From positions 1 through 32,263 of the forward strand of contig RBNJ01000359.1 in NCBI GenBank assembly GCA_003990765.1: a stretch of DNA of 32,263 bases, written 5' to 3'. This DNA is from Jimgerdemannia flammicorona. Lineage: Eukaryota. The notes beneath the pieces are model-generated. The model was not told where the DNA came from. It saw only the letters and a program-made list of their open reading frames with translations, and did no database searches. How positions within the stretch are numbered: the stretch's first letter is position 1; every line of letters starts with the position of its first letter. Position numbers and translations under genes: made by a program. Shown one piece after another: positions 5,501-32,263 of the stretch.

Positions 5501-8187
5501 CCATGGCGCTCCCGGGTTGGAGGATCGACATCGACGTAGAGCGAATCAGTTAAGAGGAATTGATTCTCAGAGCCTGATGTCAGTTTTACGCTTTCGAGCA
5601 CGGATTCGTCTATTTCATCGAGCGTGAACGTCCTTGAGAATATATCTCGGTCGCTAGAATAAAGTAATCTACCAACTTCAACGCCCTCATGCGCCGCCCC
5701 CTGTACATTATCCAATTCGATACGGTGAGAATCAACCAATATTCCAGTGTAAGGATCAAAACATTTGTACAGAGCGAAAGGCGGGGCACCATGTTTGTTT
5801 GAGACTGCGGTAGTTGCGGTGTCAGCCGAGACGATCTGGACGTTAAAGGCCGGGAGGAGTAGCAAGCCGTTCGATATCGGGTCTTTGAGTTCTCCAATGC
5901 TGATGTGTAATCTGATCCACGACTCGATCGCTCGAGTAGGTGAATGCGAAGACAACAAATCTCGCGGTACATACGTGAGATGCTCGAACAATATCGTTCC
6001 TGTTCCAACAGATATTCCTGTAACGTAGTGTTTATCCTTTTTCAGTCGTAACATCAAAAGCACTGAGCAGAAGATCGTCTTTACTACACCAAAAAACTTT
6101 GGCGCTAAATCGTCTTCTTGATTTTGGTCGTGAATGGTGATTTTAGCACTATGTCCTTCAATCGGCCATATCGTCAGTGGTGCGGTTTGCGTTTTGGTGT
6201 GGAAGAGGCCGCTTTTGAGTAGAGGTTGCAAGGATGACTGCTGGGGGTAATATCTGACATTGAATCTTTTTTTGCGTCGCCAAGTGGTGGCGTCGAATGT
6301 AACGATGACTTCGTCGTTGTAAATGACGAGGTACTTCCCGTCGTCGGTGAAAACCGCACCGCCGTAGAGCCCCTTCAAGCTTTTTGGCATTTGGAACTTC
6401 GGGGCGTTCTGGGTGGCAATCAGAGTGACTTGTGCGTCAGCGTTCAGTGTCTCATGTTCCATTTTATCATTTAACGACGGTTCGAATCCCGAGCGGAGGT
6501 CTGTCCAGTAGGGAAACATGGTTGATGGTGGAAGTTCAAACCGACCCTCAAATTCATACGGTTTGTTGCGCCCCAAGCACCATTTCGACAGCGCGATGTA
6601 TTCACCCTTACGAGATATTGATATCATATTGTAGATATTGGCTGGATTTTCCTGCTGTGCGGTTCCAGTCCAGGATTTTGAGCCTTCCGGGTATTTCCAT
6701 GTGGCAGAGCTGCCATCGCTGTTCAACGTCGCAAAGTGTTCGCCATCACCAGAAATGTCAACGGCGACGATCGTCGTCGGCTCAGTGTTGACGGACTTCA
6801 TGTTGACGGCAATTGAGTCATTGGGCTGTGCCCGGCCAACTTCGATTAAGGTTTCTTCAGTGCCATATTTAAATGGGCCGACTGGTCGAGCCTCAGTGAC
6901 AGCGCTACCAACTACGGCTCTCTCCTCGTTCATTTGGGTTAGGAAGGCATTAGCGGACAACTGCAAGGCTGCCTTCAACTGCTGGTTTGCATTGTTTTTG
7001 TTGCCGGTTGTGGTCTTTGGCAGGTACGTGTCAACATTTCCTGGGGATGGCATTGTTGTCACCGATTCGCCAACTACGGCGTCGACGGTTCTCAGTTGGT
7101 TTAACGGCTGGTCTGCATTGTTTTTGTTGCCGGCGGCACCCTCGTTGGACCGGTTCAGATCCTCAGCCTGTCTCGGGACTGGAGTTGGGGGCAGGTATGT
7201 GTAATTACGCCGCTCTTCGAAAAAATCTATTTCCGGTACGACCTCCTCTGTGGTTGTAGAGGTTGGCTCTTCGCTGACGAAGGTCACTTCTTTGTTGGAC
7301 GTGTTCAGATCCTCGGTCCATCTCGGGACTGCATTACGAAGGTCGGCCATGGCTGGATCTGAATCCGGAGTTATGGGCGGATATGTGTACATACGCCGCT
7401 CATTGAGGTTTTCGAAATCTATTTCCGGCTCGCTCTCCTCTGCGGTTGCAGAAGTTGGTTCTTCGTTGACGAAGGTCACTTCTTTGTTGGACGTGTTCAA
7501 ATCCTCGGCCATGGCTGGATCTGAATTCGGAGTTATGGGCGGATATGTGTACATACGCCGCTCATTGAGGTTTTCGAAATCTATTTCTGGCTCGCTCTCC
7601 TCTGCGGTTGTAGAAGTTGGTTCTTCGTTGACGAAGGTCGCTTCTTTGTTGGACGTGTTCAAATCCTCGGCCATGGCTAGATCTGAATTCGGAGTTATGG
7701 GCGGATATGTGTACATACGCCGCTCATTGAGGTTTTCGAAATCTATTTCCGGTTCGCTCTCCTCTGCGGTTGTAGAAGTTGGTTCTTCGTTGACAAAGGT
7801 CACTTCTTTGTTGGACGTGTTCAGATCCTCGGCCATGGTTGGATCTGAATTCGGAGTTAGGGGCGGGCGTGTGTAATTACGCCGCTCATTGAGGTTTTCG
7901 AAATCTATTTCCGGCTCGCCGTCCTCTGCGGTTGTAGAAGTTGGTTCTTCGTTGACGAAGGTCACTTCGTTGAACGTGTTCAAATCCTCGGCCCGTCTCG
8001 GAATGTCGGCCAGAGCCGGGTATGAGTACATACGCCGCTCGTCGAGGGTTTCAAAATCTATTTCCGGTTCGCCCTCCTCTGTGGATGGTTCTTCGCTGAC
8101 GATGATCTCTTCTGTGTAGAAGGTAATTTCCTGGGTATCGAGCTCCTCGTCGGCCATGACTTCGTCTGAATTTGCGGCTGTAGCCAT
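2558..8187 (-). CDS. TRP-like cation channel, copy A (about 1783 aa; exons 8187-3355, 3273-3223, 3124-3028, 2928-2558)
   Basis: The 1618-aa ORF has WD40-like strands (VAVDISGDGEHFAT, ISISRKGEYIAL, AVFTDDGKYLVIY), pre-S1 FEAVVNYKWVAF, six hydrophobic helices, pore LSGD and S6 LLNILIALL. GT-AG splicing joins in-frame exons NNVYTDTLNDAQRTWIM, DMAYLEAEIEQFLMLPYQRRNPIWFPRYVVYY and AHTDTIQQ...stop. Intron positions are identical in copy B. Confidence 0.9.
7150..8100 (-). repeat. Coding tandem repeat of ~162 bp / 54 aa, six units, in the copy A N-terminus
   Basis: Consensus EDLNTSNKEVTFVNEEPTSTTAEESEPEIDFENLNERRMYTYPPITPNSDPAMA. The anchor atcctcggcc recurs at about 7501, 7663, 7825 and 7984. Confidence 0.95.
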
Positions 8188-11100
8188 GATTTGGTACCAA
8201 ACGATACGGGCTGAGTGACGTGCTGCATGGTATGATGTAATTCGGCAGGGTTTTATTAGAGAGAACTGTCGGATACGCAGCTAAATTTGGTACCGATTGG
8301 TGTTAGTTTGGATGCTCACCTTGAAAATTTTCTCAAATGTGCCGAGGTGTCGTTAAATTCCTCGGTTTGGGTGATATTTCCTGTTACAAGATGTGTTTGG
8401 GAAAATAATAATAAATAAATTGAAATAAATACTTTAACGGCTGCTCATCAGGGAGAATGAATGACACTAGTTACAAGCACTACTTACTGCGTAAGCGATT
8501 CAATAGATATATCCAAATGTGTTGCCAGTTTGCAATTCTCTTCACTGCGCCAGTAATGATGTAGGGTGCAAGTTCCTGAGTATTTAACGAGATCCGCGAA
8601 TTTGAATTAAGCAGAACGCGTTATAGTGTCCAATACACTTCCGGTCCACATTTTACAAACTCTAATTGTAATTATATATCGATCAACGATATGCAGGTGT
8701 CAAAATGCGGAAATGGGGAGCGCGGGTCCGGGGCTTACACCTAGTCGAATATAATCCCGACACGGAATTGAACAAAAAAGCTTCCGCAAATTGACCACGG
8801 ACCGACTAGGGGTTTTGCGCCTGGATCTGCGACGTAAATCCTTTCCCAAGTTGTCAGGTAGCACGGCAGTTTATTTTTCCTTTGTTTACATATTTGTTTA
8901 TGGAAAGAGTCAAGACCGTAATGATTGGATTGAGTGTACCACTGCTTTACGTCGCTTCAAGGTGTACGACTTCGCCTTTTTTTTTTTTTTTTGTAAAAAA
9001 AAAACAAAAAACAAAAAACAAAGTACCCTGTACCGCAATCCTGAATTCAAGGTTTCAATCAAAAGGTATTTCAGTGCACGAATATTTATTATAAAGGCTG
9101 TCCAAAGGAAAAGGACTGTTTTCGGTGACCCCCATCCGTGTAACAGGAGAACAGGAGATAACGATTGACAGAAAGCGAACAAAAATGACCAGTGATTATG
9201 TAACAGGAAATGATCACTTATGTGTTGACCCTCTTGCAGGTGTAGATCGAAAGGTTAATGGCGACTGTTGTGAGAGGGTTGGTCACGATGACACCTGCAG
9301 AAGTTGGACAGAGCAAGGGTCGCACTTGCTATCCGTAACTCCGTCGGTCATGCTTTAAGGTCGCCTAAATATTTATCTGCACTCTTTTCATCACATTGTC
9401 CATTAACGGGGACAGTTTGCACCCGTCAGGACGATTGAATGTTGTCCGAAATATGACATAGATTGGTTGTGTTATGAATATCAATCAATGCGATGACATT
9501 AGCTTGCCCAGAAGCTCTGGTCAACCCCATTGGGCCCAGCCTGTACTTACATCCCTAGTTGTACCTAACCCCTGGGAGCTGGAGAAATTCATCGGTTACG
9601 TGGGGTTTATCTACTGCGGTATTTCCCGACTTCTGCTTAACGAAACCAGCGATGCTTGTTTGTCTTTCGTAAGTTGGGAAAATCGGACGGTTGGATCAAA
9701 TTTCGTGCCCTAAGTTGGGAAAGATAATTACATACTTGGTTGGATCAAATGCGTCAACAGCTGATGGGAGATAAATCTGTTTGGAAAATGTCCGATCTGC
9801 AATCGACTATCCTTTATTGCAGAACCCAGAAACTGCCATTACACAGACGGAGGTGCATCACAAATTCTGGTACCATACATTGAGTACCTGTGCCATACAT
9901 CATGTGTATATACCAAGTATGCCATGTAATTATATGACAAAACGTCACCCTTTTTTTTAAAAAAAAATTCGCAGTCACATTCAAGAGCTAGGTTGGCATG
10001 TAATTATATATATACTAAATCAATCTGGTGCTGTTCTGCTGCTAAAGGCATTGCCCACACCGATATTAACGTCCTGGCTTCAAAACCCCACGCCCGATTT
10101 ATCACAAACACGCGATTGTCGGAAATTCAAGGGACCGACCTCTTTTATAACAGCCTAGTTTTCCCATCCAAAGGATCCAACTTTCAGCATAAGACAATGT
10201 TTTCGTTGCTTTAGTTCCGAGACTCCGATCCTACATTTCCATCGGACGTTACGTCAAAGCTTTCTTTATAATGCCGGAATATCAAAATTAGTGAAAGCTC
10301 CAGTGTTGCAGGTGGAGATTGCACTGATGTCGATTCCACTTAGGCATTTCTCTTTTCCAACTGCCCTGGACAAGCAGTGTCTACCGAAAAGCTTGCTACA
10401 CATCCTGCCAGCAAGAATAATTTCAGCCCATCTCTTGGACCTTTGCTTAGATCAAGGGTTCCCGACAATCTTTGTCCGCATTATGTGGGATCGTCGCCTT
10501 TCTGTATTTTCGCCGGGGGCGGATAATTTGGTTGATGGCGGTGGCTAGGTAACGCCAAAAGGATTGCAAAGCTGATGGAGATGGATGGAGTGCGGAGAGT
10601 TGGAATTCAGACTTTGGGTGTCTGAGTTGGGCGGGGAGGCGATGGGCAATGGTTTTAAGGGAACCCCAATCTGTGAGGAGGGAGATGGATCGTTTTGCAT
10701 TGGGATGCTTTCATACATTTATATTTATGTTTCTAATTGATCTTTTATTCAATAGCACTACAAACGCCAAAGCGGAATCTCTTATAATCCGATACTCCTA
10801 ATCCCGAATCGCAACATGGTTCTCTATAGACGTCCCTCACGTTCGACATCCTTGTCCGTCCAAGGCTGGGAGTCATTTCGTGCCAGATTTGGCTGTGGTA
10901 AGGAGTGCAAGAGCGGAACATAGATGGTGGATGCATTGTACGAGGGCCGAAAGTGACTAGTAACAGTAGAAACAGTAGAAACAGTAGATTGCGAGAGCCA
11001 CCGACTGGTAGATGGAGAGATAAAAACAGAACATAAAATTTCCCATCGTCAGTGAGAAATAAATTAATTACAGAATAAGATTGTCTTACGAAACCACGCC

Positions 11101-13995: not shown

Positions 13996-16900
13996 TCAAC
14001 CACCGACCGAAATATTATCCGCCTTCAACGTCGCCCACATCAGGTCCTTCAGCTTTGTAGCTTGGGCATCTGAAACACTATTCAAAGCCAAAATCGAATC
14101 CAAAAGAGAAGCAGTCAGACCCTCATTCCCGGCATCTTTGGCATCCTCGGCATCCTTGGCAGCCTTAGCGTCCTTGGCATCCTTGTCAACCTTGGTCTCC
14201 TTGGCCGCCTTGGCGACCTTGTCCGCATCAGGCCACACTCCCAACGGCCACATTAACGGGTAGTACGTGAACTGTACGGCTGCATCCTTTTTGGCTATAT
14301 TCTTCTTTTCCCTGCTTTCCTTTTTGAGCTTGGTACCATCATCGTATTGATGAATGGTGTCAGTATGAGCTGTACAAGAAGAATAAAAATATATTTAGAT
14401 TATGAGGAAATGGCGCAAGAATTTCAACTATATGCAGAATACGGCACAATTACCGTAGTATACAACATAGCGTGGGAACCATATCGGGTTGCGGCGTTGG
14501 TAAGGCAACATTAAAAACTGTTCAATTTCCGCTACAAGGAAAGCCCTATCCTATATTGTGTGTGGTGGTAGAGAAATAGTTAACACCTATCCATATGTGA
14601 TATATATACCAAGAGAAATTTCTCACAAAGTGGATACCATAATCCAAGTACGTCGGGCGTCCGTAAGCGTCTCATTGTAGACGTTGTTCTGCAAAATTAG
14701 ACGAAACATCAGCCTATCGATTTACACGTGCATATATCCACAGCTCAAAAATAAAACATATATCCCACAGCTCAAAATGCACCGAAATACTTACGAGAAG
14801 CGCAATGAGAATATTCAATAGGACGATAGTGGACACGAATGCAAATAAGACACGGAGGACCTCCAACGAGTGATACTGGTTGTAATCCAGTCCGAAGTTC
14901 GAAAGGGAACTGTAATCCCCGCCCAGGAAGAGAAAGACGCTGTTCATCGCATTCTCAATGGTCGCGAACGGATTTATTCCAGACGCGCCATTAGGGTTGT
15001 CAGTAGGGTTGCCATTATGAAGAAGAAGAAGCAATGAGTGCGCAAACCCGACGATCATGATTAGGAGAACGATGAGGAAGGGGCCTGCCTTGATAAAAAT
15101 TTCAATGGTGACGACGATGAAGACACCGACGTTTCGGAAGACGCGAAGCTCCAGTAGTAGGTGAATCCACTGTCCGAGGATCGCGTAACTAGCAATCCAG
15201 GTTGGCGGGGGAGTTAGGGGATAGATCAGGTCCCACCAGGCGTACGTGAGAGTAAAGCCGAGCTGGAGGACGTCGATATAGTTGTACGCCGATTTTAGGT
15301 AATCGAACCGCCAAACTAACAGCTGATGCAACTCATGCAACGCGAACAGGTTGCCCAATGCGACCGTAATGATGAGCATTGAGAAGCGAGCTTTGTCCGA
15401 GATAAAAGGGTTGGCATCGGTGGATTTAGCAGATGCCACGGAGAAGGCGATGAAATAGAGGACGAAAAGGGTGAACCTAGCCCAGAACCGACGGCCGGCG
15501 AAGGCAACCCATTTGTAATTCACGACCGCTTCGAACATCGGCTCGGCGAGATCACGGTGCTGGCTATTTGAGATCTGGATGAATGGACTGCGCGGAGCGA
15601 CGTAGGTCTTGTAGATGGCCTTAAACATCCCCCAGGAACCGTCAAAGTTGATGGGATACTCCCTGTATACACATAGGTCTTGCAGCGGGACGTAGCATAG
15701 CCTGGTGGCCCGCCATGGCACAAAACTCGTTAATGACTGGATCACGGTCTTGAGAGCTCGGAAGCCCTTAACACCCAAATATAAGAAGATTCTCCGATAA
15801 CGCTCCTTTGACCAATTACGCTCGACGAAGGTGTTCATAAAAAGGCGCGTGAGGAAATGTGAACCATGGGGCGACCAATGGACGTGAATGCACGGATGCA
15901 AGTGGCTGTAGCGCGTGAAGGTCACACCAGGTTCGAGTTCCGAGACCCATTCGTTGTGGCGGCTCGCCATGGGAAAGACCGAATGATTGTATGGGACGTA
16001 CGAGAACTTCTTGGCAATATAACCTGCCAACGCTGGATGCTGGTTTTGGATCTTATGAAGCACCTGGACAAGAGTCGCAGATAGACTGGATTCTCGTATC
16101 TCTCCTTCGGCAATAGTGCTAGCTTGTTTTGCCACCTGTTCCACAATGTATTGAATCATCGCTTGAAGGATGTCTTGATATTGCATGTTGATGGATGTTG
16201 CCAGCGGACTTTCCCTGCCTTTATCATCCAGGAAGAGAGGTTTCCATTTTGAATTTTGACTTGATACCACTATTCGAACAATCTTCATGATTTTGTCTAG
16301 ATTGTGAGTGTCAGATTTATACGCAGCCACCCCTGCAAGCCGTACGAGTAGTTCCATCGGATTTTGTCCATCAACAATAATATTGAACAACTCTGGTTGT
16401 TCACTTGCTGCTTTGTCGAAAATCGAAAGAGTGAAATCCATATACAGTTTGTGTGCCTCCCAGTTGATGGTAGGTCTACGGAATTGTGGATCCTGTTTCC
16501 AAAGATAATTGTGGTGCTGCAACAATTGTTTGATACGCTGAGGCCATCGCTGGCGGCCGTCCAACATGCCGTTTAAGATATGAGGGTTTTTTTCGTCAGA
16601 TTTCGATAAAGAATCCCTCCGAAGTCCGAGCCATACCAGATCTTTGTCGACTCGTGCAAAAAAAGATTCGACGCTAATGCCTTTGCCGGATCCATCCATA
16701 ATATCTTTGCCGGCTCCATCCATAATGTCTTTGCCGGCTCCATCTATAATATCCATAATGCCTTTGCCGGCTCCATCCCCAATGTCTTTGCCGGCTCCAT
16801 CCCCAATGACTTTGCCGGCTCCATTCCTAATGTCTTTGCCGGCTCCATCCCTAATGTCTTTGCTGGCTCCATTCCTAATGGCTTTGCCGGCTCCATATCT

Positions 16901-19144
16901 AATGACTTTACCGGCTCTATCCCTAATGGCTTTACCGACTTCATCCATAATGGCTTTATCGGCTCTATCCTTAACGTCAGACCCATCCTCGTAAACTATC
17001 CAATCGCATAGTTGTGCAGTGACGTCCTCGTCTCCATCTACGACAGCGTGCCAAAACGTGACGTGCTTGAGAAACTTGAAGTCGCGTTTATCAACATGAA
17101 AGATGGTGTCGAATTCGATACTGTTGTCGCTGCTGTACACGATGACGAAATTAATGTTGCTCTCATTCCTCCAAAACCTGGTGGAAGTAATTTGGCGGAC
17201 TTTGATGCCGAGATGGCATTTTATCACGCAAGTTGAAGGTGGGTTCATCGACGAGCCATGGCGCCCCGAGCTTGAAGGATCGACATCAACATAGAACGAA
17301 TCAGTCAAGAGGAATTGCTCCCTAGGGCCTGATTTTGTCGGTTCTACACTATCGAGTTTGAATTTCGTTGTTTCATCGAGCGTGAACGTCCTTGAAAACA
17401 TATCCTCGCTGCTGGAATAAAGGAATCCACCAACTTCAGCGCCCTCATTTGTTGTCCCTTGCAGATTATCCTCGATAAGGTAAGAATCAACCAATATGCC
17501 AGTGTAGGGATCAATACATTTGTACAGAGCGAAGCGCGGAGCATTTGAGACGGCGGTAGTTGCCGGGTCGGCCGAGGCGATCTGGACGTCAAAGGCCGGG
17601 AGTAGCAAGCCGTGCAATATCGGGTCTTTGAGTTCTCCAATACTGTTGTGTATTCTGATCCACGACTCGATCGCGTGAGTAGGTGAATGCGAAGACAACA
17701 AATGTTGCGGTACTTCCGTAAGACTCTCGAACAATATTGTTCCTGTTCCAACAGATATTCCTGTAACGTAGTGTTTACCCATTTTCAGTCGTAACATCAA
17801 AAGCACCGAACAGAAGGTCGTCTTTACCACACCAAAAAACTTTGGCGCTAAATCGTCTTCTTGATTTTGGTCGTGAATGGTGATTTTGGCACTGTGTCCA
17901 TCAATCGGCCAAATCGTCAGCGGTGTGGTGTGCGTTTTGGTGTGGAAGAGGCCGCTTTTGAGTAAAGGCTGCAAGGATGACTGCTGGGGGTAATATCTGA
18001 CATTGAATCTTTTTTTGCGTCGCCAAGTGGTCGTGTCGAATGTAACGATGACTTCGTCGTTGTAAATGACGAGGTACTTCCCGTCGTCGGTGAAAACCGC
18101 ACCGCCGTAGAGCCCCTTCAAGCTTTTCGGTATTTGGAAGTTGGTGGCGTTCTGGGTGTCAATCAATGTGACTTGTGCGTCCGTGTTCAGTTCGTTGTGC
18201 ATCCCCTCATCATTTAGCGGCAGCTCGAAGCCCGAGCGGAGATCTGTCCAGTAGGGGAACATGGTTGATGGTGGAAGTTCAAACGGACCTTGGAATTTGT
18301 ACGATTCGCTGCGCCCCAAGCACCATTTCGACAGCGCGACGTATTTACCATTGTGAGATATTGATATCATATCGTAACGATTGGTTGGATATGTCTGCTT
18401 TGCGTCACCAGTCCAGGTTTTTGAGCCCTCCGGGTATTTCCATGTGGCGGAGCTGCCATCGCTGTTCAACGTCGCAAAGTGTTTGCCATCGCCTGAAATG
18501 TCGACGGCGATAATCTTCGGTTCGGTGTTTAACAGCCTCTGGACAAACTTTTCATTCATGTCGATGACGATTGGTTCTTCTGATTGTATCCGGCCGATTC
18601 CGACCAAGGTTTTTTCGGTGTCACTTTTGAATGGGCGGACCGGTCGAGCCCCAGTGACAGCGCTACCAACTACGGCGACGACGGCTCTCTCCCCATCCAG
18701 TTGGGTTCGGAAGGCATTACCGGACGGCTGGTTTGCATTGTTTTTATTGCCGGCGGCGCCTTCGTTGGACGTGTTCAAATCCTCCGCCCATCTCGGGACT
18801 GCATTACGAAGGTCGGCCATGGCTGGATCTGAATTCGGAGTTATGGGCGGGAATGTGTAATTGCGCCGCTCATTGAGGTTTTCGAAATCTATTTCCGGCT
18901 CGCCCTCCTCTGCGGTTGTAGAAGTTGGTTCTTCGTTGACGAAGGCGGCCCGTCTAGGAAAGTCGGCCAGAACCGGATGTGAGTACATACGCCGCTCGTC
19001 GAGGGTTTCAAAATCTATTTCCGGCTCGCCCTCCTCTGTGGATGGTACTTCGCTGACGGTGATCTCTTCTGTGTAGAAAGTAATTTCCTGGGTATCGAGT
19101 TCCTCGTCGGCCATGACTTCGTCTGAATTTGTGGCTGTAGCCAT
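13996..19144 (-). CDS. TRP-like cation channel, copy B (about 1623 aa; exons 19144-14795, 14688-14638, 14550-14454, 14369-13996)
   Basis: The 1476-aa ORF is paralogous to copy A and has the same three GT-AG introns, giving NNVYNETLTDARRTWIM, DRAFLVAEIEQFLMLPYQRRNPIWFPRYVVYY and AHTDTIHQ...ISVGG-stop. Confidence 0.9.
16673..16969 (-). repeat. Coding 24-bp / 8-aa tandem repeat (about 12 units, DGAGKDI[M/R/G]) present in copy B but not copy A
   Basis: DRADKAIM DEVGKAIR DRAGKVIR YGAGKAIR NGASKDIR DGAGKDIR NGAGKVIG DGAGKDIG DGAGKGIM (DII) DGAGKDIM DGAGKDIM DGSGKGIS. Copy A has only KEDEKIDIS here. Confidence 0.95.
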
Positions 19145-21798
19145 GATTTGCTACCAAACGATACGAGCTGAGTGACGTGCTGCATGGTATGATGTAATTC
19201 GGCAGAGTTTTATTAGAGAGAACTGTCGGGCGCGCAGCTGAATTTGGTAACGATAGGTGTTGGTTTGGATGCTACCTTGTAAAATATGTGATGAAAGCTC
19301 GAATGTACGAGGTATCAGCTCGTCGAATTCCTCGGTTGGGTGATATTTCCTGTTGTAAGAGGTGTTTCAAAAAAAAAAAAAAAAAAAAAAAAAAATGAAA
19401 TAACGATGTTAGCGGCTGGTCATAACGGGGACTGAAAGGTACCAGTTACAAATAATTACCACTTACTGTGTAAGCGATATTGCCGGAGTCAATAGACGTA
19501 TGCCAATTCGCTTCACTGAGCTACGGGACGCCAGTAATAAAATACTGTAGGGTGTAAGCACTCAATTGCCTCCGAAGTATTTAACGTGATCGATTAATGA
19601 TATGCAGGCGTCAAAATAAGGAAATCGTGAGCTCGGGGCCTGCGCTTACACCATTGTCCCCGACACGGAATTAAACAAAAAAGGTTCCGCATTGACAATG
19701 GATCGACTGGAGGACTTTTATGCCCAAGTTGTCAAGCAGCACGGCATATTTGTTTACAGAAAGAGCCAAGGCCGTAATGATTGGATCGAGTGTACTACTG
19801 CTTTACGCCGCTTCAGGGTGTACGACTTCGCTTTTCTTTTATTTTTTTTAAAAAAGGTACTCCGTGCCACTCACGTCAGCAATCCTGAATTCAAAAGGGA
19901 TTTAGTGCACGAATATTTATTATAGAGGTTGTCCTAATTGTCTTATATTAAACTGTTTTCGGTGACCAAAAAACCTTCCTCCTTAATGACGAAAATTGAC
20001 CCCCTGACCGTGTAAAACAAGGGATAAATATAGAAAAAAGGCTGTAACAGGGAATGGTCACAACCAGATATCGAAAAGGTTAAGTAAGAATGACTGTTGT
20101 GGGAGGGGTTGGTCACGATGGTACCTGCAAAAGTTGGACAGAATGAGGGTCGCACTTGCCATTCGGGTCACCTAAATATTCCCATGGTGTCCAAAATGTG
20201 CCGTGCCTTTTGCATAGATTAGGTGTTACGAATATCAACGAATGCGATCGCATTAGCTTGCCCAGTCCAGATACTCGGGCCAACCCTTACGGATTTGGGA
20301 CTTGACAGTTGGATCAGATGACGCCAAGAGCTGACGGGAGATAAATCTGTTTGGAATGTCTGATCCGCAGGGACCGGGTATGTACAATCAGAATTGGAAT
20401 TGGTGGTTTTATTATGAGGCTAGAGTCCGAATCGGCCATCCTTTTTTGCAGAATTCAGAAACTGCCATTACATAGAGGGAGGTGCATCACAAAGTCCTGG
20501 TACCATACATTGAGCAATTACAAGTATTCCATGTAATTTATGTGACGTAAATTTTATGATGTATCCATTTCGGGCTCACAATTTCGCAGTCACACCTAGA
20601 ATAAAGGTGTGCCATTGAGTTTAAAGGCATCCCCCATCACAAACACGCGTGTCGGAAACTCGCAAGGGCCCGACCTTTCAGAACAGCCTAGTTTTCCCAC
20701 CAAAAGCACCCAACTTTCAGCATAGAACAATATTTTTGCTGCTTATAGTTCCGAGGCTCCGATCCCACAATTCGATTTCATTATAATGCCGGAGCATCAA
20801 AATGGTTGAAAGCTCTAGTGTTTGAATGTTTTTGCAGGTGGGGATTCGATTCCACTTAGCCATTTCTCTTTTCCAACGACCCTGGACAAGCAGTGTCTAC
20901 CAAAAAGCTCGCTGCACATTTTGCCAGTCAGAAGAATTGCCAGTATGCGGGATCGTCGCCTTTCGGTATTTTCGCTGGGCGGGATAATTTGGTTGATGTC
21001 TCAATTGCCGGTGGCTAGGTAACGTCAAAGCTGATGAAGCTGGCTGGAGTGTGGAGAGTTGGAATTCAGACGTTGGATGTTTGAGTTGGGCAGGGAGGCG
21101 ATGGGCAATGGTTTTAAGGGTAACCCAATCTTTGAGGAAGGGTTTTGCATTGGGATGCTTTCTTATATATTTACATTTTATAAACTTTTATTCGATAGCA
21201 CTACAAACGCCAAAGCGGAATCTCTTATCATCCAATATTCTCTAATCCTGGATCGCCGCGACACTCTTTGCTACATCTTCGACACGTGTACATCCTTGGC
21301 AACACAGCACCCTCCCAAGAACGTCCCTCACATTCGACACCCTTGTTTGTCCAAAGCTGGGAGCCATTTCGTGCTAGATTTGGCTGTGGCAGGGAGTGCA
21401 AGAGCGGAACATAGATGGTGGGTGCATTGCACGAGGGCCGAAAGTACGAGTAAACAGTATGAACAGATTTCGAGAGCCATCGACTGGTCGGTGGGTCGCA
21501 GGATAGGAGATGGAGGGATGGGAAAAAAACATAAAATTTCCCATCGCAAGCGAGAAATGATAAATTACAGAATAAGATTGTCTTGCGAAACCACGTCACG
21601 TTACTATGTGAGCAAGTGACCTCTGCCTACCCATTGAAGAAAAAACCCCCCATTCTCTATCCAATACCCCCTTTCCTCACCACATAAACGAAAGAATGAA
21701 AGGCACGCACGCCGAGTGTCCTACCCGCCACCATTATCCTCCACGCACCTCGCAAACGTCCTTGTAAATAAAGCATCGTCAACACAACCCCCGCGTTC

Positions 21799-23559: not shown

Positions 23560-24031
23560 TGGTGTGGGATGTCGGTTCTTGGGGAAAGGTGCAAAGGAAA
23601 AGAGGGCGTCCGGAAGAGGGGAGAAACAAGTGCGCGCCGATTGGGACGGAAACTTGTGTAACCGGGGGAGATGCGGGTATGGGGGCGCACGTGTGGGCTC
23701 TCCACCTCACCTTTTGTTTGTTGTGGGGGTAATAATTATGAATATCTTAGTACGTGCATAAACAAATGTCACCATCGCCTTGTCCTCCCAGCTGTTTCCC
23801 GTGGTGAAGGTATATATATACTCAGTCAGTCACCCGAGACAATAGGCCCGTTTGTATATATGGAATGTTAAATCATTCACCCTGACTCAGCCCGAACAAA
23901 CAAACAACCTGATTACGTATACCTTTTGCCGAAGAAAGGAGGGGGGGATGGCGACATAGATGACGCGGAGGCGTGCTCCGGAGGAAAAGGTATAGCGCCA
24001 AACCAGGTGCCGCAGACTTGACTGGCGCAAA

Positions 24032-25367
24032 ATGTCTCAAAAACAGCACAGTAAGCGGCCTGTGGCGCAGCTCTATCCCGACAAAGTCACCAGAACCGCG
24101 TTTCCCCACCATGGCGCAGCCCCAAGCAGTCAAGCACGCTCCACATCAGCCTCTTTCATCCCCCAACCAACCATCCCACAAGTCCTCCCATCTCTACAAT
24201 GGCTCCGGACACTCTTTGGCAACCCCGATGACGCAAAGCTCTACATGGTCGACTCCCGCGGCGAGGACAAGGCTTGCTTCGGGACGCTCGACATTGCAAC
24301 CCACAAGTTCGTCCCGCTTGCGCTCCACCGGCCGACGCACGGGCCACTGGCTTATCAGATGAACTACCACTTCAAGTCATACACGCCACTCTCCGATTCC
24401 GTGCACGTCGACTTGAAAAACTCGCTGCCGTGGCGGGCGAGGGGGGGCGAATAGGAAGTCGCGTCACGGTCGAGCGATTCACGCGTATGGACAGTGGAGG
24501 TGAACAAGGCCGATAGGCCGACAGAGATTTTTTCGTATGAGAGGGACGAGGGGAGGGCCAGGTTCCTGTTTTCCACTCGCCCCACGGTCTTCAGCAATAA
24601 GTGGGAACTCGCAAAGTTGAGGTGCGTCGAGATCGTGGCGAGGGGATGGGCTCGTTTTGCAGGCGTTATTACTATTCCGAAGGATAATGAGGATCCGGAA
24701 AGGCCTGGTAAGACGAAGGCGCCCGGGGCGGTGGTGTTGAACGTGCATGGTGGGCCGTGGTCAAGGTGAGTTACCTCAATCTATTTTATTTTATTTATTT
24801 TATTTTATTTTATTGAGGACAACTTGGAGGTTTGTGAAATTGACCCAATCCCTAACCGTCCCACATACTTAACACCCGAACGAACGCAGGGACGACTTTG
24901 GCTTCAACCCATATTCCACCAGTTCTGTGCGTCGCGCGGGTACGCAGCACTGTCGGTCAACTTCCGCGGCTCGACTGACTTCGGCAAGCGCCACCTCAAT
25001 CTAGGCAATGGGCAGTGGGGCGCTACCATGCACGAGGATCTACTGGGTATGTCGTGGGTGTGGGAATGTGGGGGTTCATAGTGCAGGCCGAGTGGTACGT
25101 TTTCTAACGACATCGTGCCGTCTTTTTAAAAATTTGAATTCGCAGACACTATCCAGTGGGCCACCAGTCAGGCATTGCCGACAAGTATCGCGTTGCTATC
25201 CATGGCGGTAGCTATGGCGGGTACTCTGCCCTTGCCGGTATGTTTCTTTTCTTCTGTCCTTTCTCGTTCCTTTCCCACACCCCTCAGCAGCGTCCAACCT
25301 AGTGACGCTCCTCCGCTCGATCTCGGACTACTGGGGGGTAGAAGGAGTTTTGGTGGTTGATATTGGA
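24032..25367 (+). pseudogene. S9 family (prolyl oligopeptidase / acylaminoacyl-peptidase-like) serine peptidase pseudogene
   Basis: Motifs LFGNP, LYMVDSRGEDKA, VLNVHGGPWSR, SRGYAALSVNFRGST, GQWGATMHEDLL, VAIHGGSYGGYSAL (catalytic Ser) and SNLVTLLRSISDYW. Introns at about 24766-24889 and 25047-25145. Frameshifts near 24642, 24910 and 25171, internal deletions, and no catalytic Asp/His region found. Confidence 0.85.
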
Positions 25368-25749
25368 GGTTGGGTGTGCACATGCGGATATCGCACACGC
25401 TTTCACAAAAAATGACAAATAATTATATTGAATATACCCGATCTAACCATGCATTTTATCTTGGTTTGTCTTGTCCTTTTTTGATCTCCTTGCTTCCACG
25501 CATCAAGCTTACACGCTTTGTCATAGCAACTATCCGTGTGGTTTGACTCCCTGCAATTGTCACAATCATTGAAAAAAAGACGTGTTTCTCCCTCTATCCA
25601 CCCTGTGGTGTCAATTTTTTTTTTTTTTTTTTTTTTTTGAGGCAATCGTCATTATGATGACGGAAAGGACGAGTTGCTCGAGGTCGTAGAAAATAGAAGC
25701 TGCTGGGTAGCGTAACGCGTGACGTTGTCTTTCTGGTGATGTCACAGCT

Positions 25750-25850
25750 TAATCTGACACCTACATTGGAACCTATACATTCCTTTATCAAACCTCACAT
25801 TAGTAGGCTCCCATGCCAACCCTTTTAGGCTGACTCTTGGTGGGTAACGA
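25750..25850 (-). ncRNA. Putative decayed omegaRNA scaffold / element right end
   Basis: Lies directly 3' of the RuvC-III motif. Minus-strand stems: GTCAGCCT/GGGTTGGC (25815-25834), GGAGCCTA/TAGGTTCC (25804-25811 with 25768-25775) and an alternative CCTAC/GTAGG (25803-25807 with 25760-25764). Positional inference only. Confidence 0.4.
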
Positions 25851-26260
25851 AGGAGAATGTTGCGAGCGCCATTGAAATCGCAGTCAAGCTTCGTCTGACA
25901 TGCTGGACAGTGAAACACTTTGGACCCACCTAGGCCATGGTGGAGATATTCACAGCACCACATATCTTGGAAGTGTACTCTTCTGTACAGAGAATGACCT
26001 AATACCATGGGTGCTTGTGTGCATTGTGCATTAGATGCTGCTGAAAATGAAAGTGTGACCATGTACACATTATATGTACAGTTTTAGAATAAATATGACA
26101 TTGTCCTCATCTGACCATTTCTTGTATGTAAAACTCTGGTAGGAGAATGATATAATAGTTCTCATACAGCCACTATGTAAGCTTGTGATGGCAGTTATCC
26201 ATCAGGTATTGAATTTGTTTGTAGATATATAGCATGATATGCTATAATCTATAAATAGCA
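25800..26260 (-). pseudogene. tnpB: Fanzor2 / IS607-type TnpB RNA-guided nuclease, C-terminal remnant
   Basis: Hand translation through stops: YRL*HIMLYIYKQIQYLMDNCHHKLT*WLYENYYIILLPEFYIQEMVR*GQCHIYSKTVHIMCTWSHFHFQQHLMHNAHKHPWY*VILCTEEYTSKICG, then a frameshift, then CEYLHHGLGGSKVFHCPACQTKLDCDFNGARNILLRY. This covers the RuvC-II region, zinc finger and RuvC-III (DxDxNGAxNI). Confidence 0.88.
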
Positions 26261-26469
26261 ATTTTGCATATAAGTTTGCATAAGTAAATAAAATACTTCA
26301 GCAAAAATAATACTTACTCAAATTCAATCTTATATATGCTAAACTATTCCAGACTGACCTATAGTACTTATGTTCAAAGTTTTCAAATATCTTTCTTCTA
26401 TACAATTTATGTTACACAAAACTTCAAACAACAGTTTTCGACATAACTAGGAGAAAAGATACTATTGTT

Positions 26470-28500
26470 ATGGCATCAAGCAAGAGTTCTGATGGGTATA
26501 CTGAGTCAGGGAGATCAGGGGCTTTCAGCTGGCAGAATGTGGGAAGGGGTTATGGCCTGGGAATGGAGGTCTTTGGAGGGTCAAGAAGCAGCAAGGGCTC
26601 TGGAGGAGATCTGATATTGGGTGGTAATGGGGGGTGGACTGGCCCCTCAAGCTTTGTAGACAAGATAAAGGGAAGTAGATGGCCAGCTGGCAACAGGGCT
26701 GGTGCTGCTGTGGGGAAGAATAAGGTGAGCCTTGGGAGGGAGAGAGGTCCTCAGGCTAGAGGTAGAAGTATAGGGTCAGAAGGAGTTGTGGCTAGGAGTG
26801 GGACTGCTGATGGAGGTGTGACAGGAAATCAGGAAAAAAAAAGAGATATGATGGCTGATGGTGGAGTGGGGCTGGGGCTACTGATTCGGAAGGGGGATCT
26901 AGCCAATGGTGTAATAGAGCTAGTGGTGGCACTATTACTCAAGAAGTCAGTTTTGGAGTTCATGGCTACCTTATGCTTCCAGGACTTAGTGGTGATGGCA
27001 AGAATAGTTCTGAGGCTTATCTTGCAGCAGGTGGCTGGGGCAGCCTCGGTGAAGTTTCTGAAGGGGCTGGAGAGAGTAGAGGTGGGCTTTGAGGAGGTGG
27101 ATCTATTGGATGAGGTGATGAAGACTGGAGTAGTGGTTGGTGAAGTGATGGTCCTTATAGTATGCTGCCTTAGGTGAGACTCCAGGGTGGTACAGTTACT
27201 AGTCAAAGGAGTACCTATGGTAATGAAGGTTGAGACTAGGAGGAGGGTTGAGGAGGTGGTGGTAGAGTATGGCAATATAGTAGATATCAGATTCTGGGTA
27301 TGGGAGGGGATAGCAATCAGAACAGGTGATGTGGATGTCAGGATTAGACTGGTGGAGAAGGAGGCCACTGGAAAGATAAATGACTGACCTTCAGTGCTGA
27401 TGTGGGGAGCTATTATCTATAGGGTATTGAGAGTGAAGGGGAGTGAAGAGGAGGAGGAGAACTTGTTAGAAGTACTGGAGGAGTTGAGTGGTGTAGTGGA
27501 ATGGAGGGCGAAGGCCTGGAAGCTCTTTGAGGAGATAATACATCTGGAGGTTATGGAGAAAAAGTGGGTCCGCATGGATAAGAGGCAGTGGGAGCAGGCA
27601 CAGAAGTGTAAGAGGCAGAGAGAGCTGTTGGCGAGTATGAACATAGAGGCAAAGAAGAAGGCAGAGGGGGCTGAGGTGACTGGGGGCATCAAAGCCAGTA
27701 TCTGGGCTGGTAAAGGAGAGGGGGAGATAGAGGCAGGCAAGGAAGGAGCTGGGAAGGTACCGAGCAAGGACTTCTATACCAATGGCACTTTTGAGGTCTG
27801 GGAGCAGAAATTGGATACTACCCCCCTTCCTCTTATCAGGAGGGACCTGGCTGTGAAGAGAAGGATGACAGAGGATATACTGATGAAGGGGGCCCAGCGA
27901 GTGCAATTTGGGGTCCCTGATGTGGTAGAAGGGGGCTAGGTGGTGGCAGTTAGCGAGGATGAGCTAGTGGATGTCCCTGAGGAGGAGTGGGATGAGGCTG
28001 CCAGTATAGGTGCTGACACCATGATGTTGGATACAGGACAGCCAGGGACTCTGAGTGGGAAGGAGGTGGGGAACCTGCTGTGGATGAGCAAGGTGATGGA
28101 CAACCTTGTGGCTGAGGCTTTGAGAGAAGTGGACCTGTGGGCAATATCTGATAAGCATTGAGTATGGATGCTGTGCAGAGATAGAGTGGTGGAAGCACTG
28201 AGGACAGAGATTCTTGCGATCTTCCTGAAGGAAGAGAGATATGAGGTTGATGAGGTGAGGAAGGCAGAGCTGATGGTGGTTGCAGATGAGAGGGCAGCCT
28301 ACTGTTGAGCTGAGCATCATAGTTTGCAGCTCTGGAGGGAGGCCTGTCTGGAGTATTGTGAGGACTTTGAGGAGAGAGAAGATGGGGCAATGGTAGTACT
28401 TCTGGATGGGTTGGATGCATGGAAAGCTGGGGATAGGGAACTGGCTACTGAATATGTCTTGGACTTGGTGCAGGAGGAGCAGAATGTGGACTTGTAGAGG
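26470..28500 (+). pseudogene. LINE ORF1 remnant (RRM-like middle region)
   Basis: Frame fragments 26470-27177, 27187-27387, 27394-27939 and 27940-28161 are separated by stops. VKGVP...VVVEYGNIVDIRF...IRTGDVDVRIRL resembles L1/Tx1 ORF1. Confidence 0.7.
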
Positions 28501-28528
28501 ATGGGATCACTATTTAACATTATTTCTT

Positions 28529-31500
28529 ATGAACAGTACAACTAACATTTTCTCTTTGAATGTGAATGGGTTGAGGGGATCTGGGTGGTATAAGAACATT
28601 TTTACTTAGCTCAAGGGATTGGAGGCTGATCTCTTTTTACTACAGGATGTTTGATGTGAGGATGAGGATAATCAGATAGAGTGGACTAGGGAATGGGGTG
28701 GGGCTACTGCTTTGTTTAGTAAAGTGGTGATTCTGGTGAGGAAGGGTAGAGGAGACTTGGAGGGAATCAGAAGCTGAAGTGATCACTTAGTCTGGGGAGA
28801 TTGGCAGTGGCCAGGGTAGGAGTCAGTGAGAGTTGGCTCCTGCTACTGCCCTGCAGTTAGGGGTGAGAGGATTGCATGAATTAAGAAGCTGCTGGAGGAG
28901 AGTATTCTCTTGGAGGAAGGGGTCAATATTCTTGGTGGGGACTTTAATATGGTTCGGGTTCAGCATCTGGACAGAACTGATGGAGGGAGAAGTGCAGGGG
29001 GGAGAAGTGGAGGTCTGAACACATAGGAGGAGGTGGAGAAGTTGAGCTCCTTAGGGGATATGGGCAGAACATAATGGGGCAATGCCAGGGTCTACACACA
29101 TTGAGTGAATGGCTTAGGTACAAGAATTGATTGGATTCTGATGGTAGAGTATTGGGGTTCTGATGTTTGGAAGATGTTGGAGGTGGAGTGGTGTCCATGG
29201 TCTGATCACTGGGGACTGTTGGGGCAGAGGCAGTTTGGGGGGAGTGGAGATGGACCTAGATATTAGCACCTTAACTCCTCTCTGCTGACTGAGAAGGGGT
29301 TGTGGGACTCATGGGTGGAGGACATTCAGGTGAAAGTTCTTGTCTGGAGGCATGAGGGTTTGTCTGTGGGTGTCCAATGGATGAGATTGAAAGAGGCAGT
29401 GAGGGTCTATTGGGGGAGAGCGGGTAGAGATACTGGGAGGCAGAGGAGGGAGCACATGAGGTGTGCTTCCAGCAGATTGAGGAGACTGCAAATAGATTGG
29501 ACAGATTTGCTTACTACTGATGGAGTGGAGGATTGGAGGATAGAGCAGGCTAAATTGGAGATAGTGGAACTGCAACAGATATTGAGAGAAGAGGAGGAGA
29601 CCCATATGCATGGAATGGCTGCTAGTCTACAGTAGCAGAGGCTTGAGGAGGGTGAGCGGCCTACTAGGTACTTATCAAGACTCCTCAAAGCCAGGAGGGT
29701 GCAACATTGGTGGGATGAGATCTTAGATACTGAGGGGAATATGGTGCATGGCATACAACAAATCTTGGAGTTTTGAAGGAGAGATGGCAGAGTTTGTAGA
29801 GTGAGGGGGAAGGGGGTGTTGATGGGGCAGTGATTGCTGATATACTAGGGGAGTGGGAGCCACTGCAAGTAGCTGGACTGGGTGACTTGATCTTACCAGT
29901 GCAAGGAGAGGAGATCTAGAGTGTCCTTGTGGCAACTAAGCTGGGAACAGCACCTGGGGAGGATGGGTTACTATGGGACTTCTAGAAGATGATGGTAAAG
30001 GTCTCCAGCATTTTGGGTGAGATGACTGCTCTCTGTAACCATGTTCTTCAGAGTGGTGAGTGGGTTGGAGGGCAGGATCTTAGGCTGGTGGCCTTGTTGT
30101 ATAAAGACAAGGGGAGGAGAGAAGACTGGAAGAACTGGAGGCCAATCATGCTTCTGGATATGGATAGGAAGATAGTAACTAAGGTGATTGTCACAAGGCT
30201 GCAGAAAGTTGCCCAACAGGTACTGGGGGAGGAGCAGCAGAGCTTTGTTGGAGGCAGACTTATAAGAGATGGAACTGCATGAGTACATGGTGTTATTGAA
30301 GGGGCCCAGGCTTGTGGACTGGATGGAAGGTTGGTCTTTTTGGACCAGGAGAAGGCCTATGACCATGTTCGATGTATCTGGCTGGGCAAGGTGTTGGATT
30401 GAATAGGTGTTCCCCTAAGATTTCAAGCATCTATGTTGAGTCTGCTTGAGAGCAGTCAGGCAGCACTGATGTATAATGGCCACTGAGGTTTAGCATTCTC
30501 CTTGGGTAGAGGAGTTCCTCAGGGGGACCCTCTGTCTCCTATTCTCTATACCCTTTTATTGGAGCCATTGATGGATAGGATTTGTAGAAAAGTGGCAGAG
30601 CTCTCTATTTATAGTATAGTGTGGAAGATAGAGGCCTTTGCAGATGACATAGTGGTTGGACTTGGGTCTGTGGTAGATGTTGAGGTACTTAAGAAGACAG
30701 TGGAATGGTATGAGGCTCACTTGGGGGTGAAGCTCAACTGGCATAAGTGTGAGACAATAGTGCTCAGTAATGAGGTAGTGGGTGGGACAATTGTCCCTAC
30801 TGGTGAGGTAGTGTGGTATCTGGGCATCTTCTTTTCTGTATATGGTTCTGTCTTTCCATGAGTGTGGTAGGAGAATCAGATGACTATATGGGGAGAGGCC
30901 CTTCAAAGTTGGGGAGGCCACCATATCTCTCTGGCAGGGTGGGTGACAATCCTGAATGTATACTGGTTCTCCAAGCTGTGGTATGTGGCCTATCACCTTG
31001 ATTTCTCAGCTTGAGTGGTGAAGAGGCTGACAAAGATGGCTAGAGATTGGATCTGGGTAGGGAGGAGGTCTCAGATAGGTTGGGATACTCTTGCAACACT
31101 GGTGGTCAGGAGAGGTCTGGGCCTTGTGGACTTCTCTAAGAGGCTGCACTGCTTGTGAGCCTGGTGGTTGAAGAGAGCTGCTGAATTGCAGAGAGAGGGT
31201 TGGGTGCCACTGCTGAGGAAGGTGTGGAAGATGAGGACCTCCCCTCAAGGGTCCTCCAGAGATCTGCTCTCTTTGGTGGGGCTGAATGGAACTTGGCGGC
31301 TGCAGTTTAAGGATTTTTGGTGGGGGATGGTAGATGGAGCACACCACATTGACCTGTGCTGGCAAGGCAATGAGGGGGAGGTGGTTTGGGGGCCTAATAT
31401 ATAGTAATGGGATAGATTGCTCCTGGGGGGTACTCTACTTGATATATTTAATTTTGAAGATAGAGTGGAGTATCAGCAGAGTCTTGGCCAGGATCTTTGG

Positions 31501-32080
31501 CCCAGTGGCTGGCAGATGGCAGGGATCAGTGAGAAGTAGGACTGGGCAGGTATCTGGTCTTGGAGTGCTGAGGTGCGGAAGTGGCTTCCTTCCAAGTTCT
31601 GGGTGGTATGGTGGCGAATGCTACAGAGGAATGTTATGTTAAACTTTCACACTGGGCATCTGGTGGATGGTGGCCATTATGATTGTGAGGAGTGTTATAA
31701 TATAGGACAAGCAGGGGGAATTGTGCAGATGCCAGAACATTGGCTGGAGGAGTGTGAGGTCTTGGGAGACTTTTGGGTAGAAATAGGGGTTAGATTAGAT
31801 GTAGGGCAGAGGCTGGTGGGTGTGGGAGGCTGCTGGGAGGACTTGAGGTCTTGGCTAGTGGGCAGAGTAGGGGATAGCTAGCTCACTGTAGGGTGGGTGT
31901 TGGCAGTGTAGGTGGAACTGGTGGGATATTGACTCTTTGTATTTGAGGAGGGATGGTAGATGGGGCTGTGGGAAAAGATTTCCCAGTGGGAGGAGCTGAT
32001 GGGGGATCTGTTGACTGGATGGTGGGTGGGTTGGGGTCCTCAGAGTGGGCAATGTCGCAGTTTAGTGGTAAGGATATGTG
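28529..32080 (+). pseudogene. LINE ORF2 remnant: APE endonuclease, reverse transcriptase and C-terminal zinc finger
   Basis: SLNVNGLR, LFLLQD, GDFN, RIDWIL and SDH (APE). WRPIMLLDMDRKI, QQSFVGGRLI, LDQEKAYD, GVPQGDPLSP, FADD and YLGI (RT). CEEC...EHWLEEC zinc finger. Many stops and frameshifts; the 3' end is approximate. Confidence 0.92.
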
Positions 32081-32263
32081 CACAGAGTGGAGGGAGGGTG
32101 GAGATTGTGTTAGACAAAGTAGTCTTTCATTAAGAAGAGGTAGAGAGGGAGGACCCCTCTAGGGGGATTGGATAGGAGGAGGTATTACTGTATTTATATG
32201 GGATAGATGGGCATAATAAAGGAAGGAAGTCCAAGTAACTATAAAAAAAAAAAAAAAAAAAAA

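Follow-up and report, generated by a model that had tools for sequence, protein, structure and literature searches.

A decayed fragment in a Jimgerdemannia flammicorona contig, probably the right-hand end of an IS607-type transposon with a Fanzor2 gene

Identity and damage of the fragment

We analyzed a 32,263-nt stretch of Jimgerdemannia flammicorona DNA (contig RBNJ01000359.1 of assembly GCA_003990765.1, positions 1 to 32,263 of the forward strand; hereafter the window), in which the minus strand at 25757-26253 very probably represents the right-hand ~500 bp, now dead, of an IS607-type DNA transposon of eukaryotes that carried a gene for a Fanzor2 (TnpB-like) RNA-guided nuclease. This homologous stretch holds ~137 codons of the TnpB/Fanzor C-terminus, followed by the right tip of the transposon. 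On the minus strand it comprises a pseudogene fragment at 25844..26253 (residues ~265-401 of ~426 aa), the vestige of the C-terminal tail and of the initial part of the 3′ non-coding region at 25802..25843, and the 45-nt right terminus of the element at 25757..25801. The original prediction, made from the letters of the window, had set a Fanzor2 fossil at 25800..26260; the place was right and the limits needed revision, since homology covers the slightly wider stretch given above.

The homology is far beyond chance. A 99-aa read-through piece of the fragment, with stops written as X, was compared by phmmer with 1.84 billion representative proteins and gave 1590 matches at E ≤ 1e-3, 338 of them at E ≤ 1e-10, the best at 2.5e-30 with 58% identity. 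The Pfam family PF07282 (Cas12f1-like TNB) matched the open reading frame (ORF) at 25745-26083 with 27.3 bits (E 4.1e-6; cut-off 26.3) and scored slightly below this cut-off on the frame-2 read-through (25.8 bits); no family was matched in the Pfam scan of two frame-3 read-throughs. Sixteen of the phmmer matches were also scanned against Pfam: those of at least 400 aa carried PF07282 in 13/13 cases and HTH_OrfB_IS605 in 12/13 (one below cut-off), and a weak OrfB_IS605 match was observed in most of the scanned relatives. When 99 full-length relatives (380-799 aa) were aligned to the window by tblastn, all 198 matching pieces fell on the minus strand at 257xx-26253, which leaves just the final third of the protein in the window. 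The 426-aa relative P0151 matched at E 1.4e-44, with residues 265-363 at 57.6% and residues 364-401 at 76.3% identity. Taken together, these results bear out the TnpB/Fanzor identity given in the original prediction.

All five peptide motifs on which that prediction relied were located on the minus strand, in two frames. The frame from 26298 reads ILLPEF, then SKTVHIMCTWSHFHFQQHL, then TEEYTSKICG; the frame from 26299, one base out of register, reads LGGSKVFHCPAC, then DCDFNGARNILLRY. The predicted four stops and one frameshift were found as well: the homologous reading is interrupted by TAG at 26244-26242, TAG at 26175-26173, TGA at 26109-26107 and TAG at 26001-25999, and alignment to relatives places a 1-nt deletion at ~25956-25960. 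In the stretch 3′ of LLRY, comparison with intact relatives revealed deletions of 5, 4, 2, 3, 8 and 44 nt together with a 1-nt insertion, for a net loss of ~66 nt from the tail and 3′ region.

The remaining fragment contains the helix before RuvC-II, a Pro at the canonical-Glu column and the relocated catalytic Glu within TEEYTSK. All four Cys codons of the zinc finger are kept (T-S-K-I-C...C...C-P-A-C), and the D-R-D motif of RuvC-III now reads D-C-D, with TGC as the R codon. The C-terminal motif given for TnpB/Fanzor in the pertinent part of Bao & Jurka (2013, PMC3627910), [TS]-[TS]-x-x-C4 zinc finger-x(5,50)-RD, is present in the fossil as T-S-K-I-C...C...C-P-A-C...D-C-D. Neither the RuvC-I aspartate nor the WED/REC regions, which make up the N-terminal two thirds, were found in the window by tblastn with the 99 full-length relatives; this is the truncation of a pseudogene and not a different fold. 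The fossil cannot act as an RNA-guided nuclease: it lacks RuvC-I, WED and REC, its frame has five breaks, and its guide-RNA region is ~66 nt short.

The altered codons at Arg positions had been ascribed to CpG decay, a reading which the observed/expected CpG ratio (o/e), the Arg codons and the CpG-site counts all support. CpG o/e was 0.25 in the fossil (5 CpG in 497 nt), compared with ~1.0 in host genes (0.99-1.19 in five host stretches). It was 1.02 at 25400-25756, in the flank past the right end, 1.05 in the homologous part of the metagenome relative L003, and 0.06 in the adjacent LINE (long interspersed nuclear element; 17 CpG in 5.8 kb). At 16 positions at least half of 29 relatives carry Arg. 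The window retains Arg at 4 of these, and the codons at the other 12 are TGA, TAG, TGT, TGC, CAT (three times), CAC, CAA, CAG and TAT (twice). L003 has 23 CpG sites in the part aligned to the window; the window keeps 2 of them and shows TG/CA at 14, against 1/5 in the reverse direction. Overall, changes between A/T and G/C are balanced (66 against 61). Position 25882, within the D-R-D motif, gives TGC in the window and, with the G read in run contigs, CGC (Arg). The runs, X1 and X2, are two sequencing runs of one organism label, for both of which the RNA type is a guess. The host flank past the right end at 25641..25756 is CpG-rich (9 CpG in 116 nt, counted by eye), so the CpG decay ends at the element boundary. 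Overall, the pattern is consistent with C-to-T change driven by methylation at the CpG sites of silenced repeats; the fossil cleanly illustrates a CpG decay that is confined to repeats and breaks off sharply where the transposon ends.

Subtype and anatomy of the element in its relatives

Fanzors and their cyanobacterial "pro-Fanzor" kin carry two fingerprints, described in the relevant sections of Yoon et al. (2023, PMC10711439): D-P-G in RuvC-I, and a catalytic Glu shifted from ~50 to six residues before the zinc finger. We scored these columns in an 80-row alignment. At the canonical Glu column the fossil has Pro, as have 31/33 family proteins, 16/16 cyanobacterial and 21/21 viral sequences; canonical prokaryotic TnpBs have Glu (9/9). 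At the relocated Glu column the fossil has Glu, shared with 33/33 family, 16/16 cyanobacterial and 21/21 viral rows, and the canonical TnpBs have Pro or Arg (9/9). The Pro of D-P-G lies in the truncated region that is absent from the fossil; it was found in 32/33 family, 16/16 cyanobacterial and 20/21 viral rows, with V, M, A or L in the canonical TnpBs (9/9). D-P-G, Pro303 and Glu355 were invariant in all 32 rows of a family alignment (A2). When the profile of A2 was compared with the PDB, the best solved relative was 9b0l (1.2e-48), and ISDra2 TnpB was matched at 4e-16. In the portion of PMC11832414 that describes these structures, 9B0L is the complex of the Acanthamoeba polyphaga mimivirus Fanzor2 (ApmFz2) and 8GKH is a Fanzor1; no 8GKH chain was among the 26 PDB sequences matched by the profile at E ≤ 1. 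The nearest prokaryotic loci were mainly cyanobacterial, the 17 best-listed of 80 kept being cyanobacterial or Oscillatoriales-type at 34-48% identity. Together with the recombinase gene upstream in relatives and the tree (both below), the fingerprint and the solved relative support the assignment of the fossil to Fanzor2 of the IS607 type, as had been predicted.

The hallmark of Fanzor2, as set out in the pertinent part of Bao & Jurka (2013, PMC3627910), is its presence in IS607-type elements with a TnpA serine recombinase and without terminal inverted repeats or target-site duplications. In the window itself, tnpA gave 0 matches and the left end of the element is absent. A repeat scan of 24500-27000 returned no terminal inverted repeats and only short, AT-rich, chance-like pairs. 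The complete element was seen in relatives. Close relatives of P0151 were found at 13 metagenome loci (L001-L013), and the recombinase gene lies upstream in 12 of them; it is also present at 29/80 prokaryotic and 44/78 viral loci. Five of the close loci (L002, L003, L004, L006 and L007) are 99.6-99.9% identical across 2.06-2.2 kb and then pass into unrelated flanks; they are therefore separate insertions of a young ~2.2-kb element and point to a soil eukaryote in which it transposed very recently. At L006, an ORF with a MerR-type helix-turn-helix and a Resolvase domain (Resolvase E 3.5e-13) stands upstream of the Fanzor gene, and one flank of the element is a Tc1/mariner transposase.

The tnpA gene of L006 is interrupted at 1981-2046 by 66 nt that start with GT, contain TACTAAC and end with AG. 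We take TACTAAC to be the fungal branch-point consensus and read the gap as a putative spliceosomal-type intron; at the same point, tnpA of the more distant L010, L014 and L015 has no gap. We also observed an apparent frameshift in the Fanzor gene of the L006 copy, near 3030. The layout of the relatives, tnpA followed by Fanzor2, is the IS607-type architecture given for Fanzor2 in the corresponding part of Bao & Jurka (2013, PMC3627910).

The fossil was placed in a quick maximum-likelihood tree of 80 rows, consisting of 33 family proteins, the fossil and 46 loci (53 chosen for near-full coverage from 158 fetched, seven of which were removed for internal stops). Canonical TnpBs separated with support 100, and the cyanobacterial group formed its own clade, also with support 100. 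The fossil fell within a 20-row family set (96), beside two Diversispora epigaea and two Gigaspora margarita proteins (SH-aLRT, the Shimodaira-Hasegawa-like approximate likelihood ratio test, 91), and four viral rows stood inside the 38-row clade holding the family. In this tree, which contained no Fanzor1 sequence, the fossil clustered with IS607-type relatives from viruses and cyanobacteria. Two rows taken from viral contigs, L101 and L102, fell in the cyanobacterial clade; instead of viruses of eukaryotes, they may represent cyanophages or cellular contigs that were misfiled.

The right end of the element is conserved, the terminal 45 nt (25757..25801) being 82% identical to six relatives versus 66-69% in the coding part. 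In the window and in six independent insertions, homology is lost past one and the same base, 25757, and the X1 and X2 contigs on the fossil have loose ends at 25760. In the parts of PMC11832414 and PMC10530073 that describe it, the guide-RNA scaffold of ApmFz2 extends from -205 to 0 and terminates at the right end. By analogy, we infer that the 45-nt terminus may be the 3′ end of a guide-RNA (omega RNA) scaffold. The left arm of a terminal hairpin predicted in L003 and L001 lies inside the 44 nt deleted from the window.

An intact copy would be ordered as a serine-recombinase gene (tnpA), the Fanzor2 (TnpB-like) nuclease gene and a short non-coding right end. From what is described for IS607 TnpB and ApmFz2, TnpA would move such a copy, and its 3′ end would be transcribed into a guide RNA in which the scaffold stops at the right end and the flanking DNA supplies the guide. 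Together with this guide RNA, Fanzor2 would cut matching DNA beside a short motif.

The genome was also predicted to host, or to have hosted, a Fanzor2 family, and the support for this claim comes solely from diverged copies in contigs of the two same-label runs. A 1841-nt contig of X1 aligned to the fossil at 25843-26164 with 13 letters and 4 gaps different over 322 nt (~95% alike), and two X2 contigs showed 42 letters and 12 gaps over 386 nt and 29 letters and 10 gaps over 253 nt (~86-89% alike). The host-gene contigs of both runs have few or no differences from the window. Other, less decayed copies are thus present under the same organism label. Cover by run contigs is next to none at 26221-28000 and shows nothing either way. 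An intact copy, or a long protein closer than 60%, was not found: 4 proteins were seen among 15 candidates, the best at 60%, and this blank is weak evidence.

Alternative origins and surroundings of the fossil

Several points weigh against an IS607-type Fanzor2 origin of the fossil. Because the window lacks tnpA, the left end and RuvC-I, the membership of this copy in an IS607-type element rests on its relatives. The branch that joins it to the Glomeromycotina proteins has an SH-aLRT of only 91 and comes from a quick tree search, in which the fossil covers 35% of the columns and was flagged for odd composition; Fanzor1 references were absent. For the guide RNA, which is assigned to the 3′ end by analogy, neither L003 nor L001 was predicted to fold better than shuffles over its intact last 210 nt (z -1.35 and -0.76), nor were the 149 nt left in the window (z -0.21), three distinct sequences in all, and Rfam at gathering thresholds gave 0 matches in the window. 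The methylation invoked for the decay is deduced from the decay pattern. The protein evidence on host identity is limited to relatives with 25-30% identity, the nearest relatives of the large host ORF being in Funneliformis and Endogone; on this basis the host resembles a fungus of the Mucoromycota/Glomeromycotina type. Finally, an A27 run (T on the plus strand) lies at 25640-25614 of the minus strand, 117 nt past the right end and between this end and the peptidase gene, and at first sight suggests a retrocopy.

In such a scenario, the fossil would be a processed pseudogene, that is, a 5′-truncated Fanzor2 transcript reverse-transcribed with the help of a LINE and ending in the A27 run. The fragment is indeed 5′-truncated, with the A run behind it on the same strand and a LINE family next door. 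However, the homology ends at 25757, the base common to six independent insertions, 117 nt before the A run, and the run contigs likewise break at 25760. Moreover, the 116 nt before the A run are CpG-rich and the fossil is CpG-depleted, a contrast that indicates different histories. Given a homology that stops at the canonical right end and a CpG-rich stretch of 116 nt in between, the A27 run does not make the fossil a retrocopy, and we regard this origin as very improbable.

The LINE in question is a decayed LINE-type retrotransposon on the plus strand at 26471..32263, with an endonuclease at ~28553-29149, a reverse transcriptase at ~30127-30771 and a poly(A) at 32244-32263, at the window end. 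It is near full-length and adjoins the truncated 5′ side of the fossil, where the Fanzor homology stops abruptly at 26253. Between the two, an AT-rich spacer (26254..26470, 25% GC) has no detectable likeness to the upstream part of the element and may be the 5′ untranslated part of the LINE. No 5′ remnant of the transposon was detected, as 26254-26480 and 26481-26800, compared with the 1.6 kb upstream in L003, scored no better than shuffled sequence (control segment 82 versus 23.6±4). The 5′ part was lost either by insertion of the LINE into the element, the rest of which would lie past the window end, or by a deletion, and the window cannot tell these apart. The LINE also shows a strong GC skew, +0.32 to +0.52 per kb; its CpG loss fits methylation decay, but CpG decay, being symmetric, does not account for the skew.

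The second alternative is the remnant of an endogenised segment of a giant virus (Nucleocytoviricota), Fanzor2 genes being enriched in such viruses. Among viral contigs, 126 of 150 pattern-matching stretches encode a relative, at 26-57% identity, and the four viral rows noted above stand inside the 38-row clade. Against this, no viral gene was recognized among the window ORFs scanned, and with P0151 as the query a relative was encoded by 0 of 13 pattern-matching stretches in viral contigs. The rows nearest to the fossil are proteins encoded on long contigs (381 kb to 1.3 Mb) of fungal assemblies. The closest intact elements are multi-copy with differing flanks, one of them the Tc1/mariner transposase, and tnpA of L006, the copy read, has an intron. 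A viral origin is accordingly judged highly unlikely.

Least credible is a Fanzor1, or a canonical prokaryotic TnpB that came by contamination or recent bacterial transfer: Pfam alone says only that there is a TnpB-like TNB domain and the tree held no Fanzor1 reference, but the fossil has Pro at the canonical Glu column together with the relocated Glu, canonical TnpBs split off with support 100, the family profile reached no 8GKH chain at E ≤ 1, the relatives sit in elements of the IS607 type, the mark of Fanzor2 according to PMC3627910, and the flanking host genes have introns that the run contigs skip.

The preferred reading remains a dead IS607-type Fanzor2 transposon in a eukaryotic genome, the eukaryotic setting being borne out by host genes beside the fossil that run contigs skip at GT..AG and by the 66-nt GT...AG intron in tnpA of L006. 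On its right-hand side, a peptidase S9 gene with introns occupies ~23900-25400 of the plus strand. Of the catalytic-domain profile, only positions 8-80 of 213 were matched; the gene contains the GGSYGG serine motif, and its introns at GT..AG are those skipped by the run contigs. As far as 25800, the later part of the peptidase S9 domain had no match. The gene may have lost its 3′ part to the transposon block, or the block may sit in an intron.

Further away, two paralogous intron-less ORFs lie on the minus strand, at 3331-8280 (1649 aa) and 14714-19150 (1478 aa). Each has N-terminal acidic repeats, and distant relatives of its C-terminal membrane part contain PF00520, an ion-transport domain. 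Their flanks seem to recur, ORF translations being alike at 743-1129/8755-9168 and 11115-11857/21772-22599, which suggests a segmental duplication. Within the second large ORF, 16584-17011 encodes short tandem peptide repeats (GAGK-type, minus strand) and has long open frames on both strands. A tRNA scan of the window found 0 genes.

Significance and comparison with known systems

Fanzor2 genes in eukaryotic IS607-type elements have been known since 2013 and thousands were catalogued in 2023, as stated in the pertinent parts of PMC3627910 and PMC10530073. The fossil is a broken member of this known kind, with many unannotated relatives already in public data, and cannot itself yield a nuclease. 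It records a past invasion of this fungus-like genome by an IS607/Fanzor2 lineage that arbuscular-mycorrhizal fungi also have. In the library searched, no paper contained both "Fanzor" and "Glomeromyc...", and the supplementary tables of the 2023 surveys may list such genes. That the lineage is widespread, and possibly still mobile, in Glomeromycotina-type soil fungi is a tentative proposal that we consider rather doubtful at present. If it were true, with intact copies in the organism, compact (~420-450 aa) eukaryote-adapted Fanzor2 nucleases could be obtained, and a serine-recombinase transposon would be active in a fungal nucleus. The best lead is offered by the intact, near-identical soil-metagenome relatives, which could be tested as compact eukaryotic nucleases, together with the less decayed copies of the same organism.

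Among known systems, the soil-metagenome IS607/Fanzor2 element (L001-L013; proteins P0151 and P0160-P0163) is like the fossil in its coding DNA (66-69% identity), in its terminal 45 nt (82%) and in the base at which its right end stops. It differs in that its copies are intact or nearly so, with a CpG o/e of ~1.0-1.1, whereas the window copy is old, truncated and decayed. This element supplies the whole anatomy: tnpA with its putative intron, Fanzor2 and the right end.

The nearest named relatives include the Diversispora epigaea proteins Glove_242g146, Glove_184g52 and Glove_267g56 and the Gigaspora margarita proteins 11196_t and 14009_t, as well as Gigaspora rosea CAG8775942.1 and Rhizophagus clarus RclHR1_00600021. 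The Glomeromycotina proteins resemble the fossil by 65% identity to P0188 over 108 columns, by their neighbouring position in the tree and by the same Pfam domains. They are annotated only as hypothetical or transposase-like; several are partial, none is identical or nearly identical to the fossil, and none comes from the organism of the window.

Among prokaryotes, the closest relatives (34-48% identity) are the cyanobacterial IS607 TnpBs, the "pro-Fanzor" group described by Yoon et al. (2023, PMC10711439), which share D-P-G, the Pro and the relocated Glu in 16/16 rows. Unlike the family studied here, they are prokaryotic and form a clade apart from the eukaryotic family (support 100).

The best comparison with a solved structure is ApmFz2, the mimivirus "TnpB-like protein L79" (PDB 9B0L; PMC11832414 and PMC10530073, in the parts concerned). 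It was matched by the family profile at E 1.2e-48, by P0004 at 2e-24 and by P0151 at 1.3e-21. With the relatives analyzed here it shares D-P-G in RuvC-I, a residue other than Glu at the canonical position, a Glu just before the zinc finger and the D-R-D of RuvC-III, and according to the same sources it too belongs to an IS607 element, which has TnpA and whose 3′ non-coding end is conserved. ApmFz2 differs in being viral and not cellular, in its length (520 aa versus ~420-450 aa in the nearest intact relatives) and in its low identity to them, the two having been compared by E-values. Against this complete nuclease, the window copy is the broken C-terminal third of a protein whose intact relatives share the ApmFz2 fingerprint.

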